Shown here: in pieces, positions 4,373 to 37,935 of the stretch
Layout: the number at the start of each line of letters is the position of its first letter
Numbering within the stretch: the first letter of the stretch is position 1
IMG/VR virus record: IMGVR_UViG_2778261393_000005
Location: 1-37,935 of that record
Source of the DNA: a virus
Lineage: Duplodnaviria > Heunggongvirae > Uroviricota > Caudoviricetes
Length of the DNA: 37,935 nucleotides
Direction: 5' to 3' (one strand)
The notes under the pieces: generated by a model
Databases searched by the model: none
What the model saw: only the letters and a program-made list of their open reading frames with translations
What the model was told of the DNA's origin: nothing
Position numbers and translations under genes: made by a program

Positions 4373-5341
4373 TTAGTAGGTTATTTTTGTTGCGAATACT
4401 TCGCCTTTTACGATGGCTGTTATGATATTTTTAGCAACATCTTCTGATGCACCAACCTTGATAAGGTCAGCAAGTATTTTGTTATTTACTTCTTTCCGGT
4501 GAGCTTTATCCTTTGCTCTACGCTCTTCTTCTTCCTTGATTCTTTTTTCTTCTGCTATTCTGGCTTGCTCTTTTGCTTCAGCCTCGCGCCGGATTCGTTC
4601 AGCCTCCTCCTGTGCTTTTCGGCGTTCTGCTTCAATTGCCGCCTGCTTTTCTCTTTCAGCTCGTTCTGCTGCCTCTTTTGCTTCGCGCTGTGCTCGTTGC
4701 TCGGCTTCAATGCGTTCACGCTCTGCACGTTCCGCTGCGGCCTTAGCTTCTGCTTCTCGCCTTGCTGCTGCTTCAATTTCGGCTTTTGCCTTTGCTTCGG
4801 CTTCTGCTCTGGCTCTCTCTTCAGCTTCTCTTTTTAAGCGTTCTTCATGCTCTCGCTTTTCCCGCTCCGCTTTGAGTCTTGCCTCTTCTCTTTGGCGGTC
4901 AAATTCGCGATCCATCAAAATCGCTATTTCATGGTCAGACTCAATTTGCTTTGCGAGAGCTTCAGCTGCTGCCTTAGCTTCTTCTTCGGCTTTAATCCGT
5001 GCCTGTTCCTCCTCATAATCAGTAAGAGGCTGGCGCGCCTTGGCTTTCAGCTCATCAAGGCGATCACGCACTGTCTTGCGGTTGGCATCAATTAGCTTTG
5101 GAATTTCCTTCAGTTCAGCAACAAGGTCTTTGCCAAGACCATCGAGATATGTTTTCGTCTGCGCAACTTTATACGCCAGAGAAGCGATCTCCTTTCTGCC
5201 CTTTGCCGTTGTGATATCAGGCACAAAGGACATAACTTCACGTTCAACCCTTTGAAGGATTTCTTCAATCTGGTCGGCAGACTGAAATACAGTCATTGCA
5301 TTTGCTTTTTCAATAACAACTAAATCTGTTACTTCACTCAT
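4373..5341 (-). CDS. Hypothetical coiled-coil protein with long E/A/R/K-rich low-complexity repeat
   Basis: ATG 5341-5339 (MSEVTDLVVIEK...) with GGAGGA SD; about 150 aa of near-pure EAKR repeats; underlying DNA is repetitive (gcttc/gctgc). Confidence 0.55.
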   Translation of the reverse strand: MSEVTDLVVIEKANAMTVFQSADQIEEILQRVEREVMSFVPDITTAKGRKEIASLAYKVAQTKTYLDGLGKDLVAELKEIPKLIDANRKTVRDRLDELKAKARQPLTDYEEEQARIKAEEEAKAAAEALAKQIESDHEIAILMDREFDRQREEARLKAEREKREHEERLKREAEERARAEAEAKAKAEIEAAARREAEAKAAAERAERERIEAEQRAQREAKEAAERAEREKQAAIEAERRKAQEEAERIRREAEAKEQARIAEEKRIKEEEERRAKDKAHRKEVNNKILADLIKVGASEDVAKNIITAIVKGEVFATKITY

Positions 5342-5353
5342 ATATCCTCCGTC

Positions 5354-5382
5354 AAAAAAATTGCCCTCACACTGGAGGGCAA
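5354..5382 (-). terminator. Rho-independent terminator (leftward), between ral and the coiled-coil gene
   Basis: Minus-strand hairpin TTGCCCTC-cagtgt-GAGGGCAA followed by TTTTTTT. Confidence 0.5.
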
Positions 5383-5516
5383 AGAAGATTTCCAATAATC
5401 AGAACAAGTCGGCTCCTGTTTAGTTACGAGCGACATTGCTCCGTGTATTCACTCATTGGAATGAATACACAGTGCAGTGTTTATTCTGTTGTTTATGCCA
5501 AAAATAAAGGCTACCA

Positions 5517-32132: not shown

Positions 32133-32201
32133 CTTCGCAAACACCAGGAACGTGCAAAAACCAAATATGTAGAACGCAATATTCAGCATATCTCTTTGCA
32201 T
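32124..32201 (-). CDS. Candidate 25-aa hydrophobic peptide downstream of mnt
   Basis: GGAGGA then ATG (3-nt spacer) MQRDMLNIAFYIFGFCTFLVFAKLF; overlaps gp16 3' end on the opposite strand; speculative. Confidence 0.2.
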   Translation of the reverse strand: MQRDMLNIAFYIFGFCTFLVFAKLF

Positions 32202-32220: not shown

Positions 32221-32481
32221 TTAGCTGCTGTCTTTTTTATATAGCTCCTTGAGCGTATCAAAGACAATTTTCTTAACCATATCAGATTGTTGTTCTGCCA
32301 TACGCTCTGCATCGTCAATGTAAACTGATGCAGAGCTTTGTTTAGCCAATGATTCTTCAATCGCTGCAATTATCTCTGAGTTCAGCGACCTGTTATTCAT
32401 CTTCGCGCGCTGTTTAATTTTCGCGTGGAGTTCATGCGGAAGTCTCAAGTGAAACTGCGCCTCGTCGTATTTGCTGTACAT
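32221..32481 (-). CDS. mnt: Mnt-like ribbon-helix-helix repressor (Arc/Mnt family)
   Basis: ...AQFHLRLPHELHAKIKQRAKMNNRSLNSEIIAAIEESL...DAERMAEQQSDMVKKIVFDTLKELYKK matches recalled P22 Mnt (PHFNFRMP...NGRSMNSE...DAERLADEQSELVKKMVFDTLKDLYKK); alternative upstream ATG at 32514. Confidence 0.7.
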   Translation of the reverse strand: MYSKYDEAQFHLRLPHELHAKIKQRAKMNNRSLNSEIIAAIEESLAKQSSASVYIDDAERMAEQQSDMVKKIVFDTLKELYKKDSS

Positions 32482-32602
32482 CCTTGATGCCTCACCAGTT
32501 GGGTGGAATGGCATCGTAACCTACTGGATAAATACTCAATAGTACCATTTCGGTATGCAATCACATCATGGTTGCATCATATCATTCGTCTGGAGCAATG
32601 AA

Positions 32603-34546
32603 ATGTCAGATATCACCGCAAATGTTGTGGTAAGCATGCCTTCGCAACTCTTCACTATGGCTCGTTCTTTTAAAGCCGTAGCCAATGGCAAAATTTATAT
32701 CGGTAAAATTGACACTGACCCTGTAAATCCTGAAAACCAGATTCAGGTTTATGTGGAAAACGAAGACGGCTCTCACGTTTCTGTTGCACAGCCAATCATC
32801 ATTAACGCTGCTGGATATCCGGTATATAACGGGCAGATTGCCAAATTCGTAACTGTGCAAGGCCATTCTATGGCTGTATATGATGCGTATGGCGCGCAGC
32901 AGTTCTATTTCCCTAATGTGCTGAAATATGACCCTGATCAATTTCAGGAAAGATTGCTATCTGAAAATGGGCCATTATTAGTTGATGATTCAGTTGTTCG
33001 TGTAAAACAACCCCTCTCTATGGCAATCGAGAGAGCACAGCACGATAAAAATGCAGATTTTGTGAGCGCGAAAGACTTTGGGTTTAAAGGTGATGGCACG
33101 AATGATGATGCTGCGGTGCTCAAACTTAAAGATTACGTTAACACAAGACCTAAATATTCTCCACCAGTATCCGTGTACTTTCCAGATGGAAATTATCTTA
33201 TTAGCGAGTCATTGAATTTAATTAGACCTGTTACTTTATACTCTTTTAAAGGAGCAACAATAAACTATACTGGAACTGACGCTGCAGTTAAGTGTGGAGA
33301 TCCAACTGACGAAGATCAACCAACAGCAGATAATTTTTATCAAGGTGATTATGTAATTTATGGAATTAGATTCACTGGTGGTCAAAATGCAAAGTTTGGA
33401 ATAATGGTAAAGAGCTTTGTTTTTACACCAAAAATACAATATTGTGATTTTATTGATTATGGCAATAAGGATTCTTATGATATATATGCTCAGTTTGAAA
33501 ACTGGGATATCCTTATAGAAGGATGCTATAAAAAAACATTTTTTAGTGATATTGCAATAGGTAGTTTCATTTCTTTACCTGGTAAAAAAACGGATGGCAG
33601 TGCATATGATGGTGGGAACTCTAGAGTTACAATAAGAGATTGCTCCATGACAGCATATAACAATCAAGATTTAGGATATTTTGCCTATATTAACTGCGTT
33701 AAGGGGCGAGTAATTGGAGGTAGTGCGCATCACTCTACAGGTGGAATACTACTTGGACCAGCGGCATCTGGAACGCTTATTGATGGATTTTATTGTGAAG
33801 TAAGTACTCAACACAGACCTTGGGTAATATCTGTTTTAAGTGATAAAACTAATCCTGATAATTATTTGTTCCCTCAGTCTGTTACGGTAAGAAATGTGTA
33901 TGTAAATATGCATAAAGAAAAAATTGGTAATGCTGGTAAGCTTATTGGTGTCATGGATGCTGATGTGAAGTTAAGAGACTGGAGTGTAACAGACTGCCAG
34001 ATTTCAAACTTCGAAAATGGTCAAGTTCTTATTGATAGAAATGATCTTAATGAGCAGATCGGTAACACTTATGCAAGAATAAAACCAATTTTTGTTCCTT
34101 ATAATTCTGGTGGTGGAAGTAAATTTATTGTTACTGGAAAACTAACAACAGCAGAAGACTGGTCGTGTGGTGATATAGAAACTGGAGTTTGGATTCCGAC
34201 TGTAGGCGGAAATGCCTCCTACTATAAACAAGTTGGAAGTTATACAAGAACTGGTGATGTAGTGACCGCAAGTTTTCACATAGGGATAACGATTATTGGA
34301 AGTGGAGATGGTTATAGGATAGGTGGATTACCTTTTTTGTCACGACCAGGGGCTACTTCTGTTGGATCTATTGGGTATTACAATAACTTAACTACGGCTG
34401 TGGCTGCGCTATTGCCTAGGGTTGATGCTGAAAGTAATTACATAACATTTACAGGAGCTACATCTGTCGCTGGTAATATGAATGTACAACTAAATGTTCT
34501 AGGTAATAATGCTGAGATAATTGGTTCTGTTACTTATTTTATATAA
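32603..34546 (+). CDS. Tailspike protein: P22-type N-terminal head-binding domain plus divergent beta-helix receptor-binding domain
   Basis: [59 protein letters not shown]...[10 protein letters not shown] matches recalled P22 gp9 N-terminus; GGAG SD 8 nt upstream; C-terminal two-thirds visibly AT-rich; ORF-track start 32555 discounted. Confidence 0.9.
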
Positions 34547-34578
34547 AAACAGCGGCGAAATTGCCGCTGTTTTTTTAG
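34545..34578. terminator. Bidirectional rho-independent terminator between tailspike and acetyltransferase
   Basis: AAAAAC-AGCGGC-gaaatt-GCCGCT-GTTTTTTT: hairpin flanked by an A-run and a T-run. Confidence 0.65.
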
Positions 34579-34606
34579 TATTGATAATGTTGGTGGACAA
34601 AATAAA

Positions 34607-36607
34607 CTAATTAATTACAAAGCCGTTATCATTAAGTATTTCTTTAACACCAGATTTAGATAAGTGAAAACCAACATTATATAATCCGCCGTTATGGTCA
34701 ATTATTCTACAACCATTGTCATCACATAAAGTTTTTATAGGTTTTATCTTATGCAATCCTTTCATGTCAGGAATATATTTATCTAATATATCGGATTGTT
34801 GTTTTGCTAAGTTAAGCCCATTTCTGCTGCTTGTGTATGTTGTCTCAAACTTATAATTGATAGATCTTAGTTTTGAGAATACTATGTTGGCAACATCTTC
34901 AGACGGATTAGGGGTTGGGTATACAATATATACATCATGCCCCTTGGACACGAGTTTCTTAACATTATTCGATAGAGAGATATATGCCTGCTCGCCACCT
35001 AAAAAATCTCCGCCACTAAAATTTTGCTTCGCCATCTCTAAAGGAGATGACACAGGAGCCTTAGCAAGCGGGAATTGATCATAATTAGCAGCTATAAAAA
35101 TAGTTTTCTTACCCTTAAGAGAATCAATGGCTTTCCATCTTTGCTCATTGACAACCACACATTCAGGAACATTGCCAAACCACATATCACTCACAAATGG
35201 ACATTGCTCATACGTGAGAGATAACATCCCTTTGTTATTTTCTTTTGAGTAATCTAAAATTGTTGGTGCATATTGTCCAGCATAGCTATCTCCTAATACG
35301 ATGATGTCATCACCGCCAAAGCTACACGGGTTATCAAGAGAACGTAAACCACATAAATAACTATCAGGTTCACCTCTTAAACTTTTACCAATATTTGAAT
35401 AATCTGCCAATTTCCTGAACTCTGGTTCTTTGTACATTTCATAGGTTTCTTTCAGAATGCCTGCAAGACGCCACTGAAAACCCCCATCGGCCTTTGCATA
35501 AATAGAGAAAGCAAGCAATGCTGACAGAGATGTTGCTAATACTATTGTATTCTTACTTTTAACATGTTTTGCTCTATATGGTTTTTCAATAAAAAAATAT
35601 GAAAAAGACGAAATAACAATTGAAATTGATGCTAATACTACACAGTAATAAGGAGTGATATTTTCACTAAATAATATCCTGTAAAAAACAAAAACAGGTT
35701 GATGCCATAAATATAGAGAATATGATATCAAGCCAATAAAGACAATCGGACGCAAGGATAATATTTTAGATATTAAATCGGCACCATTTGCAAATGCGAT
35801 TATCAAACATGAACCAGCTACAGGTATTAGGGTGATAAATGAAGGGTGTTTGATGTTATTTCCAAAAAACAACATTGAATAAACAATCATCAACATTCCA
35901 ATTACTGGCAGAAACGAAGTTAAAGATGATTGGTCTTTATGTATATTGCTTCTTCTTTCTTTTACAAAAAAAGACACAATTCCACCAAGAATTAATTCCC
36001 ATGCCCTTGGTAGTAGCGTATAGAATGCTAAGTCAGGGTAACTGCTAACTATAATATTTGCATACACAATAGATGAAACAGAAATCAATATAAGAAGTAA
36101 TACTCTGTATTTCTTAATAAATTTATTTATAAAAATCAATAAGAATGGATAAAATACGTAGAATTGCCATTCAACAGCAAGACTCCATGTATGAAGGAGT
36201 GGTTTAAATATACTTGCATTTGATACATAGCTATCTTCACCAAGAAAATAATAATTAGAACCAAAATAAATAGCAGAAATGAGAGATTCAGAGAATTTTA
36301 CTAAGTCATTTGGTAGAAGAATTTTATAAGCCACTATCGATGTAACTACAAGCATAGCAATAAGAGCAGGAACAATTCTCTTTATGCGTCTCCAATAGAA
36401 GTCAGTTAGTGAGAAAGAGCGGCTATCAAGTTTATTTATAATGATATCTGTAATTAAATATCCTGAAAGAACCAGGAAGACATCAACTCCAAAGAATCCG
36501 CCTTTGAATATCTTTACTCCAAACAAAGAAATGCCAGAGTGATAAATGATGACAGCCATCACTGCCAAACAACGCAATCCATCAAGCTCTTTCCTATACT
36601 TAAGCAT
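34607..36607 (-). CDS. oac: O-antigen acetyltransferase, acyltransferase-3 membrane domain fused to SGNH-type domain (Oac/OafA-like)
   Basis: 666 aa; multiple TM helices; N-terminal acyltransferase-3 pattern (RKELDGLRCLAVMAVIIYH...FFGVDVFLVLSGYLIT); C-terminal soluble region with GDSY (VLGDSYAGQY); very AT-rich. Confidence 0.75.
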   Translation of the reverse strand: MLKYRKELDGLRCLAVMAVIIYHSGISLFGVKIFKGGFFGVDVFLVLSGYLITDIIINKLDSRSFSLTDFYWRRIKRIVPALIAMLVVTSIVAYKILLPNDLVKFSESLISAIYFGSNYYFLGEDSYVSNASIFKPLLHTWSLAVEWQFYVFYPFLLIFINKFIKKYRVLLLILISVSSIVYANIIVSSYPDLAFYTLLPRAWELILGGIVSFFVKERRSNIHKDQSSLTSFLPVIGMLMIVYSMLFFGNNIKHPSFITLIPVAGSCLIIAFANGADLISKILSLRPIVFIGLISYSLYLWHQPVFVFYRILFSENITPYYCVVLASISIVISSFSYFFIEKPYRAKHVKSKNTIVLATSLSALLAFSIYAKADGGFQWRLAGILKETYEMYKEPEFRKLADYSNIGKSLRGEPDSYLCGLRSLDNPCSFGGDDIIVLGDSYAGQYAPTILDYSKENNKGMLSLTYEQCPFVSDMWFGNVPECVVVNEQRWKAIDSLKGKKTIFIAANYDQFPLAKAPVSSPLEMAKQNFSGGDFLGGEQAYISLSNNVKKLVSKGHDVYIVYPTPNPSEDVANIVFSKLRSINYKFETTYTSSRNGLNLAKQQSDILDKYIPDMKGLHKIKPIKTLCDDNGCRIIDHNGGLYNVGFHLSKSGVKEILNDNGFVIN

Positions 36608-36777
36608 TAAGTTTTCTCTCTACATATAATGCGAAATTTCGCGTGATTCTATCACATTCATTCTAAAAGTTGTTCCGAGCCATAAAATTGAGTCAACACA
36701 TTGTATGATACTGAAATGTAAAATTTGTTTGTGTCGATCTACAAAATTGTGCATATCTCTTAGGTTGGATATGAGGA

Positions 36778-37935
36778 TTACAGCACACTTTCATCAAGCC
36801 AGTCCGCCCACCACTGCATCATTTCTCTGCGCTTATCGAGATACTGAGCATGGTTGTAAATACCGCGCACAGATCCTCCGTTGGCATGTGCCAGTTGCAC
36901 TTCAATAGCGTCAGCAGGCCATTCGTGCTCGTTCATAATCGTGCTGAATTCATGCCTGAATCCGTGACCGCTTTCCAGACCTTCATAGCCGATTTGTTTG
37001 ATCACAAGCAGTACCGCGTTCTCGCAGATTGGCTTCTTCTTATCGTTGCGTCCGGCAAAAACAAACTCTGATACTGGTTTAGTGATTGAGCTTAGCGTAG
37101 TGAGAAGTTCAACCACCTGGTCTGACATAGGAACAACATGAATCTTGCGGCCCTTCATCACACTGGCGTCGATAGTGATAATCCTGTTTTCAAAATCGAC
37201 GTTCTTCCATTGCATGGAACGAAGCTCTTTTGTTCTGAGGGCTGTGTAGCGTAAAACTTTGGTCGCAATGAGCGATACGATACTTCCTGAAAATGTTGCC
37301 AGTGCTTTGTTGAATGCCGGGATCTGGTCTGCAGGAAGAAACGGGAAGTTCTTCTTGCGGTATCCCTTCATGGCGTCAGCAAGGTCAGGTGCCGGGTTAT
37401 ATTTAGCCCTTCCGGTGACAATAGCGTAACGAAAAACCTCGCCGCATCTTCTGCGGGCTTTGTTGGCTCGCTCCATTGCACCGCGATCTTCAAATCTGCG
37501 GATTACTTCCAGCAGTTGCATCGGCTCAATATCCTGAATCTCAAGACCGCCGATGATGGGTAAAATGTCGTCATCAAACATTTTGGCAAGTTCAGTTGCA
37601 TAGCCTACTGACCAGACTTGCTTCTTGTGCTCGTACCATTCCTTGTAAATCGCACTAAATGAATTGTTGTTAGACGAAGCCTTTTTCGCCTTTACCGGAT
37701 CGATGCCAACCGAGATGTCTTTCCTCGCAGTCCATGCCTTATCCCTTGCTTCCTGCAAAGTCATAAGCGGATATTTTCCGACGGTCAGGATTTTCTCTTT
37801 ACCGTCAATCTTGTAGCGAAGCTGCCATACCTTTTTCCCGGATACAGGAACATAAAGGTACAGGCCATTACCATCGAGAAGGCGGTATGGTTTTTCTTTC
37901 GGCTTTGCTGCTTCAATTTGCTTAACGGTGAGCAT
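36778..37935 (-). CDS. int: Tyrosine integrase (P4-type; IntS-like)
   Basis: 385 aa; P4-family N-terminus MLTVKQIEAAKPKEKPYRLLDGNGLYLYV; catalytic region ...HGFRHEF...VQLAHANGGSVRGIYNHAQY; ATG is the last three bases of the window. Confidence 0.9.
   Translation of the reverse strand: MLTVKQIEAAKPKEKPYRLLDGNGLYLYVPVSGKKVWQLRYKIDGKEKILTVGKYPLMTLQEARDKAWTARKDISVGIDPVKAKKASSNNNSFSAIYKEWYEHKKQVWSVGYATELAKMFDDDILPIIGGLEIQDIEPMQLLEVIRRFEDRGAMERANKARRRCGEVFRYAIVTGRAKYNPAPDLADAMKGYRKKNFPFLPADQIPAFNKALATFSGSIVSLIATKVLRYTALRTKELRSMQWKNVDFENRIITIDASVMKGRKIHVVPMSDQVVELLTTLSSITKPVSEFVFAGRNDKKKPICENAVLLVIKQIGYEGLESGHGFRHEFSTIMNEHEWPADAIEVQLAHANGGSVRGIYNHAQYLDKRREMMQWWADWLDESVL

Follow-up and report, generated by a model that had tools for sequence, protein, structure and literature searches.

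A P22-like Escherichia coli prophage carries an O7-associated tailspike beside a two-domain acetyltransferase that probably modifies the same O-antigen

The right-hand end of a tailed-phage genome raises the question of whether a tailspike and the acetyltransferase encoded beside it act on the same surface polysaccharide. The genome is IMG/VR record IMGVR_UViG_2778261393_000005 (Duplodnaviria; Heunggongvirae; Uroviricota; Caudoviricetes), and the whole analysed stretch of 37,935 nucleotides is hereafter called the window. The region in question, 32603-36607 (hereafter the module), holds a tailspike gene and, convergent with it, the gene of a predicted O-antigen O-acetyltransferase of 666 amino acids (aa; hereafter the acetylase), which is followed by the integrase gene int. 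We consider, with a probability of roughly 0.7 for the explanation as a whole, that this region is the receptor and lysogenic-conversion end of an Sf6/HK620/CUS-3-like (P22-like) Escherichia coli prophage with an IntS integrase. In this explanation an AT-rich, O7-linked tailspike stands at an Sf6-type conversion end together with a two-domain acetyltransferase that probably acetylates the same O7 O-antigen. The features of the region are as follows.

32603-34546, plus strand: tailspike gene, 647 aa, with the P22-type start MSDITANV at 32603
32603-32944, plus strand: head-binding (particle-attachment) domain of the tailspike, aa 1-114 (PF09008); conserved left flank of the exchanged block
32945-34546, plus strand: receptor-binding part of the tailspike, modelled as a short neck, a right-handed parallel beta-helix and a C-terminal beta-sandwich; 36.4% guanine plus cytosine (GC), GC at third codon positions (GC3) 0.22
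34545-34577, both strands: predicted bidirectional intrinsic terminator between the convergent genes, AAAAACAGCGGCGAAATTGCCGCTGTTTTTTT, overlapping the tailspike stop codon
34607-36607, minus strand: acetylase gene, 666 aa, fused acyltransferase-3 (AT3) and SGNH domains
about 34637-35335, minus strand: periplasmic SGNH domain of the acetylase (PF19040)
about 35612-36592, minus strand: AT3 membrane domain of the acetylase (PF01757)
36608-36777, minus strand: acetylase upstream region, 170 bp, AT-rich (32% GC), with a candidate extended -10 element and a palindrome
36778-37935, minus strand: IntS-type tyrosine integrase gene (Pfam Phage_integrase, Phage_int_M and Arm-DNA-bind_3), the conserved right flank

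The domain analysis supports a chimeric tailspike, in which a P22-like head-binding domain is joined to a foreign receptor-binding domain. Pfam domains, all assigned above the gathering score, were Head_binding (PF09008) on aa 1-113 (E 1e-66, 222.8 bits) and a pectate-lyase-like match on aa 153-258. The N-terminus matched the Sf6 and P22 head-binding domains among the sequences in the PDB. At the DNA level the head-binding domain is 88-94% identical to those of IME10, Sf101, HK620, CUS-3 and Sf6, and the match ends at 32940-32956. An earlier interpretation of the letters alone (hereafter the sequence-only reading) had placed a P22-type head-binding domain in the first 110 or so residues, in agreement with the Pfam limits, and divergence from about residue 150. 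The latter position is approximately right by three measures: DNA similarity to Sf6, HK620 and CUS-3 stops at 32943 (aa ~114), homology to the spike of phage St11Ph5 begins at aa ~142, and the GC change-point falls at aa ~173. The C-terminal domain was aligned and modelled with AlphaFold2, and the model showed a parallel beta-helix followed by a C-terminal beta domain (predicted local distance difference test score, pLDDT, 84). The best Foldseek matches of this model were tailspikes directed at O-antigen or capsule, those of Det7 (gp208), Sf6, K2-2 and HK620, with a probability of 1.0 at 9-14% identity, and invariant acidic residues are present in the helix.

The family of the receptor-binding domain is small (about 30 clusters). 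The same domain is found on different N-terminal adaptors and on contigs of different sizes, and one member lies on a siphovirus-type contig. This distribution is classic tailspike domain shuffling. In the G7C-like phage St11Ph5, gp63.1 is 57% identical in aa to the receptor-binding domain over 95% of its length, but it is carried by another adaptor on another type of virion (N4-like, virulent) and has no adjoining acetyltransferase gene.

By association, the receptor of the tailspike is very probably the E. coli O7 O-antigen. In a set of 5426 complete E. coli genomes, 52 carry the tailspike family (at least 80% DNA identity) and 97 carry the O7 wzy gene. Of the 97, 60 were listed, and at least 31 of the 52 tailspike genomes occur in that list; about 32 would be expected if all tailspike genomes were O7 and 0.6 if the two traits were independent. 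Clonality inflates the count, as E. coli B derivatives make up many of the 52. The 52 also include independent human, poultry, pig, turkey and environmental isolates. Every tailspike-family genome that could be checked carries O7, including the E. coli B lineage, and each of the three genomes that have a full-length P22-type member of the family contains the O7 rfb cluster (O7 wzx, wzy, vioAB and wbbD). This restriction of the tailspike to O7 genomes strengthens the case that the acetylase modifies the tailspike's own receptor. A search of the literature on an O7-specific tailspike gave nothing usable.

The acetylase gene lies beside int and is an AT3/SGNH fusion, as the sequence-only reading had stated with correct coordinates. 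Pfam Acyl_transf_3 (PF01757) was assigned to aa 6-332 (122.8 bits against a cut-off of 31) and SGNH (PF19040) to aa 425-657 (92.2 bits against a cut-off of 27). The protein matches PHROG 6705, 'O-antigen acetylase', over its full length (E 4e-144). In the AlphaFold2 model (pLDDT 88.7) about ten long helices are bundled in the N-terminal AT3 half, and an eleventh helix joins this half to a C-terminal alpha/beta domain. The top Foldseek match of the model was 6SE1, the periplasmic domain of OafB (template-modelling score 0.65 on the target), and the next PDB match was human HGSNAT, for the membrane part. A single-sequence search of the acetylase against PDB chains found nothing; 6SE1 was reached only by a profile of 25 homologues (E 6e-6).

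The residues known to matter in OafA are also found in the acetylase. Pearson et al. reported R14, H25, D39, R69, R72, S112, S412 and H590 as essential in OafA, in which the AT3 motifs are R/K-X10-H in the first transmembrane helix (TMH1), GG-F/Y-XGV-D, RXXR, a Ser in the TMH3-4 loop and a conserved Glu (PMC7448272). The acetylase has R12-X10-H23, G36GFFGVD42, R74xxR77, S117 and E341, all invariant or nearly so in the 25 homologues, in which G439-D440-S441 of SGNH block I and H648 of block V are invariant as well. All of the essential OafA residues have conserved counterparts here, and Cys pairs are also conserved. Between the acetylase and its closest relatives the AT3 domain is 65-70% identical, the SGNH domain 50-53% and the linker 39-47%. 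The faster divergence of the periplasmic part fits an acceptor specificity residing there, and it matches the role in acceptor choice that has been reported for the SGNH extension (PMC7448272).

The arrangement has a close precedent in Sf6. Sf6 has the same layout in the same slot, namely a tailspike on the plus strand, a terminator, a convergent oac with its own promoter on the minus strand and intS on the minus strand, with attP upstream of int. The integrase of the window is 99.2% identical in aa to Sf6 Int, and the head-binding domains are 88% identical in DNA. The Oac of Sf6, in contrast, has 333 aa and consists of the AT3 domain alone; its identity to the acetylase is 28.6% over 192 aa (E 2e-7). 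The receptor-binding domain of the Sf6 tailspike shares the fold but has no detectable sequence similarity beyond aa ~183. The host antigen also differs, being the S. flexneri O-antigen for Sf6 and probably E. coli O7 for the window.

For the form of the enzyme, the closer precedents are Salmonella phages. In P22-like BTP1 the tailspike is convergent with a 640-aa fused AT3-SGNH protein, GtrC, of the OafB family. BTP1 GtrC, g341c gp15 and SPC32H Oac are each about 31% identical to the acetylase of the window, SPN9TCW Oac belongs to the same group, and the group has the same Pfam pair and the same PHROG (6705). BTP1 differs in that gtrA lies upstream and int lies beyond further genes, and in its host and antigen. 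The sequence-only reading had set the long fused acetylase apart from the Sf6 Oac of about 333 aa; this contrast stands, but BTP1 GtrC, g341c gp15 and SPC32H Oac are already fused, and the long AT3-SGNH form is therefore not new for P22-like phages. The gtrABC glucosylation cluster of the P22, SfV and Hf4s type is not matched here, since gtrA and gtrB are absent and Pfam finds only AT3 and SGNH.

A third comparison is offered by CUS-3 of E. coli K1, which shares the backbone and int with the window (flanks 90% and 97% identical in DNA). Its order is endosialidase tailspike, neuO repeat region and int, and a receptor-modifying acetyltransferase again occupies the same slot. The neuO gene encodes the K1 capsule O-acetyltransferase, and NeuO is a soluble hexapeptide-repeat enzyme acting on K1 polysialic acid. 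Unlike the acetylase gene, neuO is co-directional with the tailspike gene and phase-variable by heptanucleotide repeats, which are missing from the window. A search for phase-variation signals (neuO-type heptanucleotide repeats and the gtr Dam/OxyR switch) found no notable tandem repeats and a single GATC upstream of the acetylase, and thus nothing that speaks for phase variation.

The genomic context agrees with this prophage type. Over its first 25 kb the window is a mosaic of matches, at 96-98%, to Sf6, HK620, CUS-3 and other phages of the P22-like coliphage group. When the module was compared with 50,697 phage records by megablast, the head-binding domain alone was matched; the module is therefore carried by no sequenced phage in that collection. 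The whole module was found in two of the 5426 complete E. coli genomes, strain 81 and Br_167_kylling, at 99.4-99.8% identity. In strain 81 it adjoins intS, tRNA-Arg (argW), yfdC and mlaA. A further assembly has the same intS/yfdC/mlaA surroundings, with the tRNA not among the called genes, and in strain 2018-05-5CC the int gene adjoins tRNA-Arg, yfdC and mlaA. In the closest relatives, the prophage type is thus found at argW.

As a separate observation, the strain 81 prophage (NZ_CP088131.1, L001 1-11318) is decaying, with an ISSen4-family insertion and a frameshifted partial DNA-transfer gene. Its tailspike, acetylase and intS genes nevertheless remain undamaged (99.3% identity), as would be the case if the host were under selection to keep the acetylase.

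On this basis a mechanism can be proposed. The tailspike would attach to the virion through the conserved head-binding domain, and the beta-helix domain acquired by recombination would most likely bind, and probably cleave, the E. coli O7 O-antigen. In the lysogen the acetylase would be expressed from its own promoter in the AT-rich 170-bp upstream region, and the bidirectional terminator would insulate it from late transcription. The AT3 domain would bring an acetyl group through the inner membrane, with cytoplasmic acetyl-CoA as the presumed donor, and Ser441 and His648 of the periplasmic SGNH domain would pass it to a sugar of the O7 O-antigen. Once O7 is O-acetylated, the lysogen would be altered in serotype, and this phage and others like it would no longer adsorb. 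Gene identities, domain architecture, conserved motifs, folds, the terminator, composition, mosaic junctions, the O7 type of the hosts and the position beside receptor-binding genes were all established here. That O7 is the receptor, the O-antigen the acceptor and exclusion the benefit is what we infer by analogy with OafA/OafB, Sf6, BTP1, CUS-3 and Hf4s.

Do the two genes travel together? The sequence-only reading had proposed an exchanged receptor-specificity cassette paired with a conversion gene. The exchange is borne out, in that the junctions of the block match its low GC content (see below), but the pairing is not, as the two genes have been swapped independently. A sister allele in 2018-05-5CC, at the same intS/argW site, has a tailspike with about 84% identity at the DNA level and 85% at the protein level. 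There, as in E. coli B (tailspike likewise ~84% in DNA), the tailspike is followed by a different terminator hairpin and then by a 381-aa AT3-only acyltransferase, convergent in the sister allele, that is 28% identical to the acetylase and unrelated to it. Both have O7 hosts, and the E. coli B relic differs in its truncated tailspike and in lying beside the bio operon. Similarity to the window is lost about 30 nt ahead of the tailspike stop and returns 37 nt beyond the int stop.

The relatives of the acetylase tell the same from the other side. The six nearest homologues examined (44-61% identity) come from Buttiauxella, Pragia, Cedecea, Proteus, a JGI isolate and another E. coli, and all six adjoin a phage receptor-binding gene or lie at or near a prophage edge. 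The two nearest, from Buttiauxella (61%) and Pragia (60%), adjoin tailspikes that have no receptor-binding similarity to that of the window. Those from Cedecea, the JGI isolate and Proteus have genes for tail fibres or tailspikes as neighbours, in prophages of the myo-, sipho- and podovirus types. In the other E. coli, the 44% relative and a truncated, unidentified gene at the contig end are convergent. A single co-inherited tailspike-acetylase cassette was thus ruled out: the Pragia and Buttiauxella tailspikes are unrelated, and the same tailspike family occurs with an unrelated AT3-only enzyme. What these neighbourhoods conserve is the position beside a receptor-binding gene at a prophage end, and the partner itself varies.

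The two O7 tailspike alleles (the window against L003 4709-6658) are patchy, with about 70% identity at aa 150-300 and 550-647 and about 96% at aa 350-500. The divergent patches map to 33050-33500 and 34250-34546 of the window. Such a pattern hints at recombination inside the gene, or else at diversifying selection acting on some of the surface that binds the receptor; that it relates to the differing acetylases would be speculation.

A related observation concerns the E. coli B lineage (NEBExpress, NZ_CP053599.1 6662-10600; REL606, BL21 and others), which has a decayed prophage beside the bio operon. It holds a 445-aa, N-terminally truncated O7-associated tailspike between two AT3-only acyltransferase genes (341 and 381 aa), and E. 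coli B strains also retain O7 wzy. The element has the look of a fossil module in which an O7 tailspike was once joined by an acetylase.

Several points weigh against a shared O7 target of tailspike and acetylase. The published O7 repeat is not known to carry an O-acetyl group, and no record of an O-acetylated O7 antigen was found in the literature. Since the tailspike and the acetylase are not co-inherited, phylogeny gives no direct proof of matched specificity. A scan for consensus sigma-70 promoters found no site upstream of the acetylase at the threshold. Phage St11Ph5, whose gp63.1 is the nearest tailspike relative that has been characterised, has an O5ab host, and its infection appeared to be independent of O-antigen recognition (PMC5764931, PMC6393563). 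Finally, the canonical catalytic Asp of SGNH enzymes (DxxH), which OafA and OafB keep, is replaced by V645 in the acetylase.

The last point can be examined among homologues. Asp is found at the DxxH position in 37 of the 106 closest homologues, and about two thirds are without it. In OafA, D587A retains about 10% of the activity, so that the Asp is helpful but not essential (PMC7448272); V645 was therefore taken as variation within the subfamily and not as inactivation. At 34670-34690 of the window (aa 640-648) lies a subfamily motif, LYN-x-G-x-HLS, in which Val645 stands here. The comparison hints that the Asp-less subfamily may work with a dyad of Ser and His, or that another residue, for example Asn644, takes the third place.

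It is worth considering what else the acetylase might do. The alternative that survives best, unlikely as we regard it, is that the gap between tailspike and int tolerates 'moron' genes, and that the acetylase acts on the O-antigen for the benefit of the host, for instance in immune evasion or in protection from unrelated phages, and leaves recognition by its own tailspike unchanged. The independent exchange of tailspike and acyltransferase would fit this, but it is also expected if each pair is re-matched to the O-antigen of a new host. The strain 81 prophage has decayed (insertion sequence element, frameshifted DNA transfer gene) with its acetylase intact, which suggests host-side selection, and E. 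coli B retains two acyltransferases beside a truncated tailspike. Against it stand Sf6 Oac, BTP1 GtrC, CUS-3 NeuO and Hf4s, which, according to annotations and papers, modify the receptor of the very phage that carries them. In the case of Hf4s, lysogens are protected from superinfection (bioRxiv 10.1101/2021.06.09.447823). Modification of the tailspike's own O7 receptor would seem to be the better explanation.

A second alternative, which we regard as improbable and slightly more so than the first, is that the enzyme modifies another envelope glycan (peptidoglycan, lipopolysaccharide (LPS) core, enterobacterial common antigen, colanic acid or capsule) to some general benefit that has nothing to do with the tailspike's receptor. 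The AT3-SGNH architecture is indeed shared with peptidoglycan O-acetyltransferases such as OatA (PMC7448272), and database names among the homologues include 'peptidoglycan/LPS O-acetylase OafA/YrhL' and 'OatA'. The occurrence of 60%-identical acetylases beside unrelated tailspikes, in other genera with different O-antigens, also points this way, as does the failure to find an O-acetylated O7 structure in the literature. Yet the best family is that of O-antigen acetylases (PHROG 6705), the best phage relatives are GtrC and Oac of Salmonella P22-like phages, and the best structural match is the LPS acetyltransferase OafB, not OatA. In addition, the gene occupies the oac slot of Sf6, its neighbour is consistently a receptor-binding gene, and the acceptor-facing domains diverge faster than AT3. 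These facts favour the O-antigen as the acceptor.

How was the region acquired? The sequence-only reading had judged the tailspike domain and the acetylase gene AT-rich against a genome near 50% GC, and computation bears this out. The GC content of 32945-36607 is 34.8%, whereas all other windows of equal size average 47.9% (standard deviation 1.8, minimum 44.0), and a uniform composition is ruled out. Two-boundary likelihood segmentation placed change-points at 33120 and 36780 (log-likelihood gain 123). At the codon level GC3 is 0.22 in the receptor-binding part and 0.26 in the acetylase, against 0.41 in the head-binding part, 0.43 in upstream genes and 0.52 in int. Since third-position GC is low in both genes, the AT bias is not an amino-acid effect. 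DNA similarity to Sf6 and CUS-3 ends at 32943 and returns at 36791, and the block replaced relative to these phages (32944-36790) coincides with the low-GC block; sister phages carry other sequences in its place. It is very improbable that the low GC reflects amino-acid composition (an Ile/Phe/Leu/Tyr-rich membrane protein) or local mutational bias and not horizontal exchange: the AT3 domain is indeed strongly hydrophobic, which in itself calls for AT-rich codons, but GC3 is 0.22-0.26 against 0.43-0.52 in the neighbouring genes, the soluble beta-helix domain is equally AT-rich, the change-points coincide with the similarity junctions, and the sister phages differ in the block.

Exchange has taken place at two levels, that of the whole tailspike-to-int block between conserved flanks and that of the acetylase alone within the block. 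Homologous exchange would most naturally act on the flanks, namely the head-binding domain (88-90% DNA identity) and int (97%). A 20-nt imperfect direct repeat (85%), at 32177-32196 and 36742-36761, brackets the region of mnt, tailspike and acetylase, and its right copy lies exactly where similarity to other IntS prophages returns. As a recombination boundary this repeat is doubtful, and it is probably a chance occurrence.

A bidirectional terminator between the two genes, also proposed from the sequence alone, is supported by folding. The convergent genes are 60 bp apart, and the hairpin at 34545-34577 has a stem of 13 bp flanked by A5 and T7. The RNA of the plus strand folds with -18.9 kcal/mol (z -4.8) and is followed by U7, and that of the minus strand with -19.1 kcal/mol (z -6.7) and is followed by U5. 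No shuffled sequence folded as well on either strand. By these features the hairpin is a predicted intrinsic terminator in both directions.

In the region upstream of the acetylase, a relaxed scan gave a candidate extended -10 promoter, TGaTAGAAT, at 36646-36654. Between this candidate and the start codon of the acetylase lies a perfect 12-bp palindrome, GCGAAATTTCGC, at 36626-36647, which may serve as an operator or form a hairpin in the 5' untranslated region of the RNA. Similarity to the IntS prophages L002 (E. coli NEBExpress) and L003 returns at 36741, upstream of the acetylase.

If the O7 reading is correct, an O7-specific tailspike has been identified, which would be a possible typing or depolymerase reagent for O7 strains. 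The O7 serogroup includes extraintestinal pathogens such as O7:K1, and a phage-written O-acetyl variant of O7 would matter for serotyping and glycoconjugate work. The mechanism is textbook lysogenic conversion, and the conceptual gain is small. What is added is the O7 assignment, a second acetylase partner, the E. coli B relic and the linkage of the acetylase lineage to receptor-binding genes, and the module is a clean natural example of exchange at two levels.

A broader proposal is offered tentatively, and we rate it somewhat below an even chance. There may be unrecognised, prophage-written O-acetylated subtypes of O7, produced by at least two unrelated acetylases (the 666-aa AT3-SGNH and the 381-aa AT3-only enzymes), each coupled to its own tailspike allele, with E. 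coli B carrying a fossil. More broadly, the AT3-SGNH lineage may be a mobile 'receptor-masking' gene that trails receptor-binding genes through podo-, sipho- and myovirus-type prophages of several genera, with the periplasmic domain re-tuned to each host glycan.

Some minor features of the window remain to be described. The longest mechanical open reading frame (ORF) of the tailspike begins at 32555, upstream of the P22-type start at 32603. Neither the gap that separates the acetylase from int nor that on the tailspike side of the acetylase holds another ORF of at least 50 aa, and the integrase gene reaches exactly to the window edge (37935). The sole gene between the DNA-injection genes and the tailspike encodes a 97-aa Mnt/Arc-type repressor (32221-32514, minus strand). 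In strain 81 (L001 3800-5896) the near-identical module is preceded by arc-type genes, an antirepressor gene and an HNH endonuclease gene; compared with these, the lone Mnt/Arc gene of the window indicates that the immI-like region is variable or reduced here. Far to the left, a 340-aa ORF (4373-5395, minus strand) consists mostly of repeats rich in Glu, Ala, Lys and Arg and produces an extreme strand bias (AT skew -0.645 and GC skew -0.25 at 4501-5000). Its equivalents in related phages are annotated as 'TolA protein' or 'chromosome segregation ATPase'.

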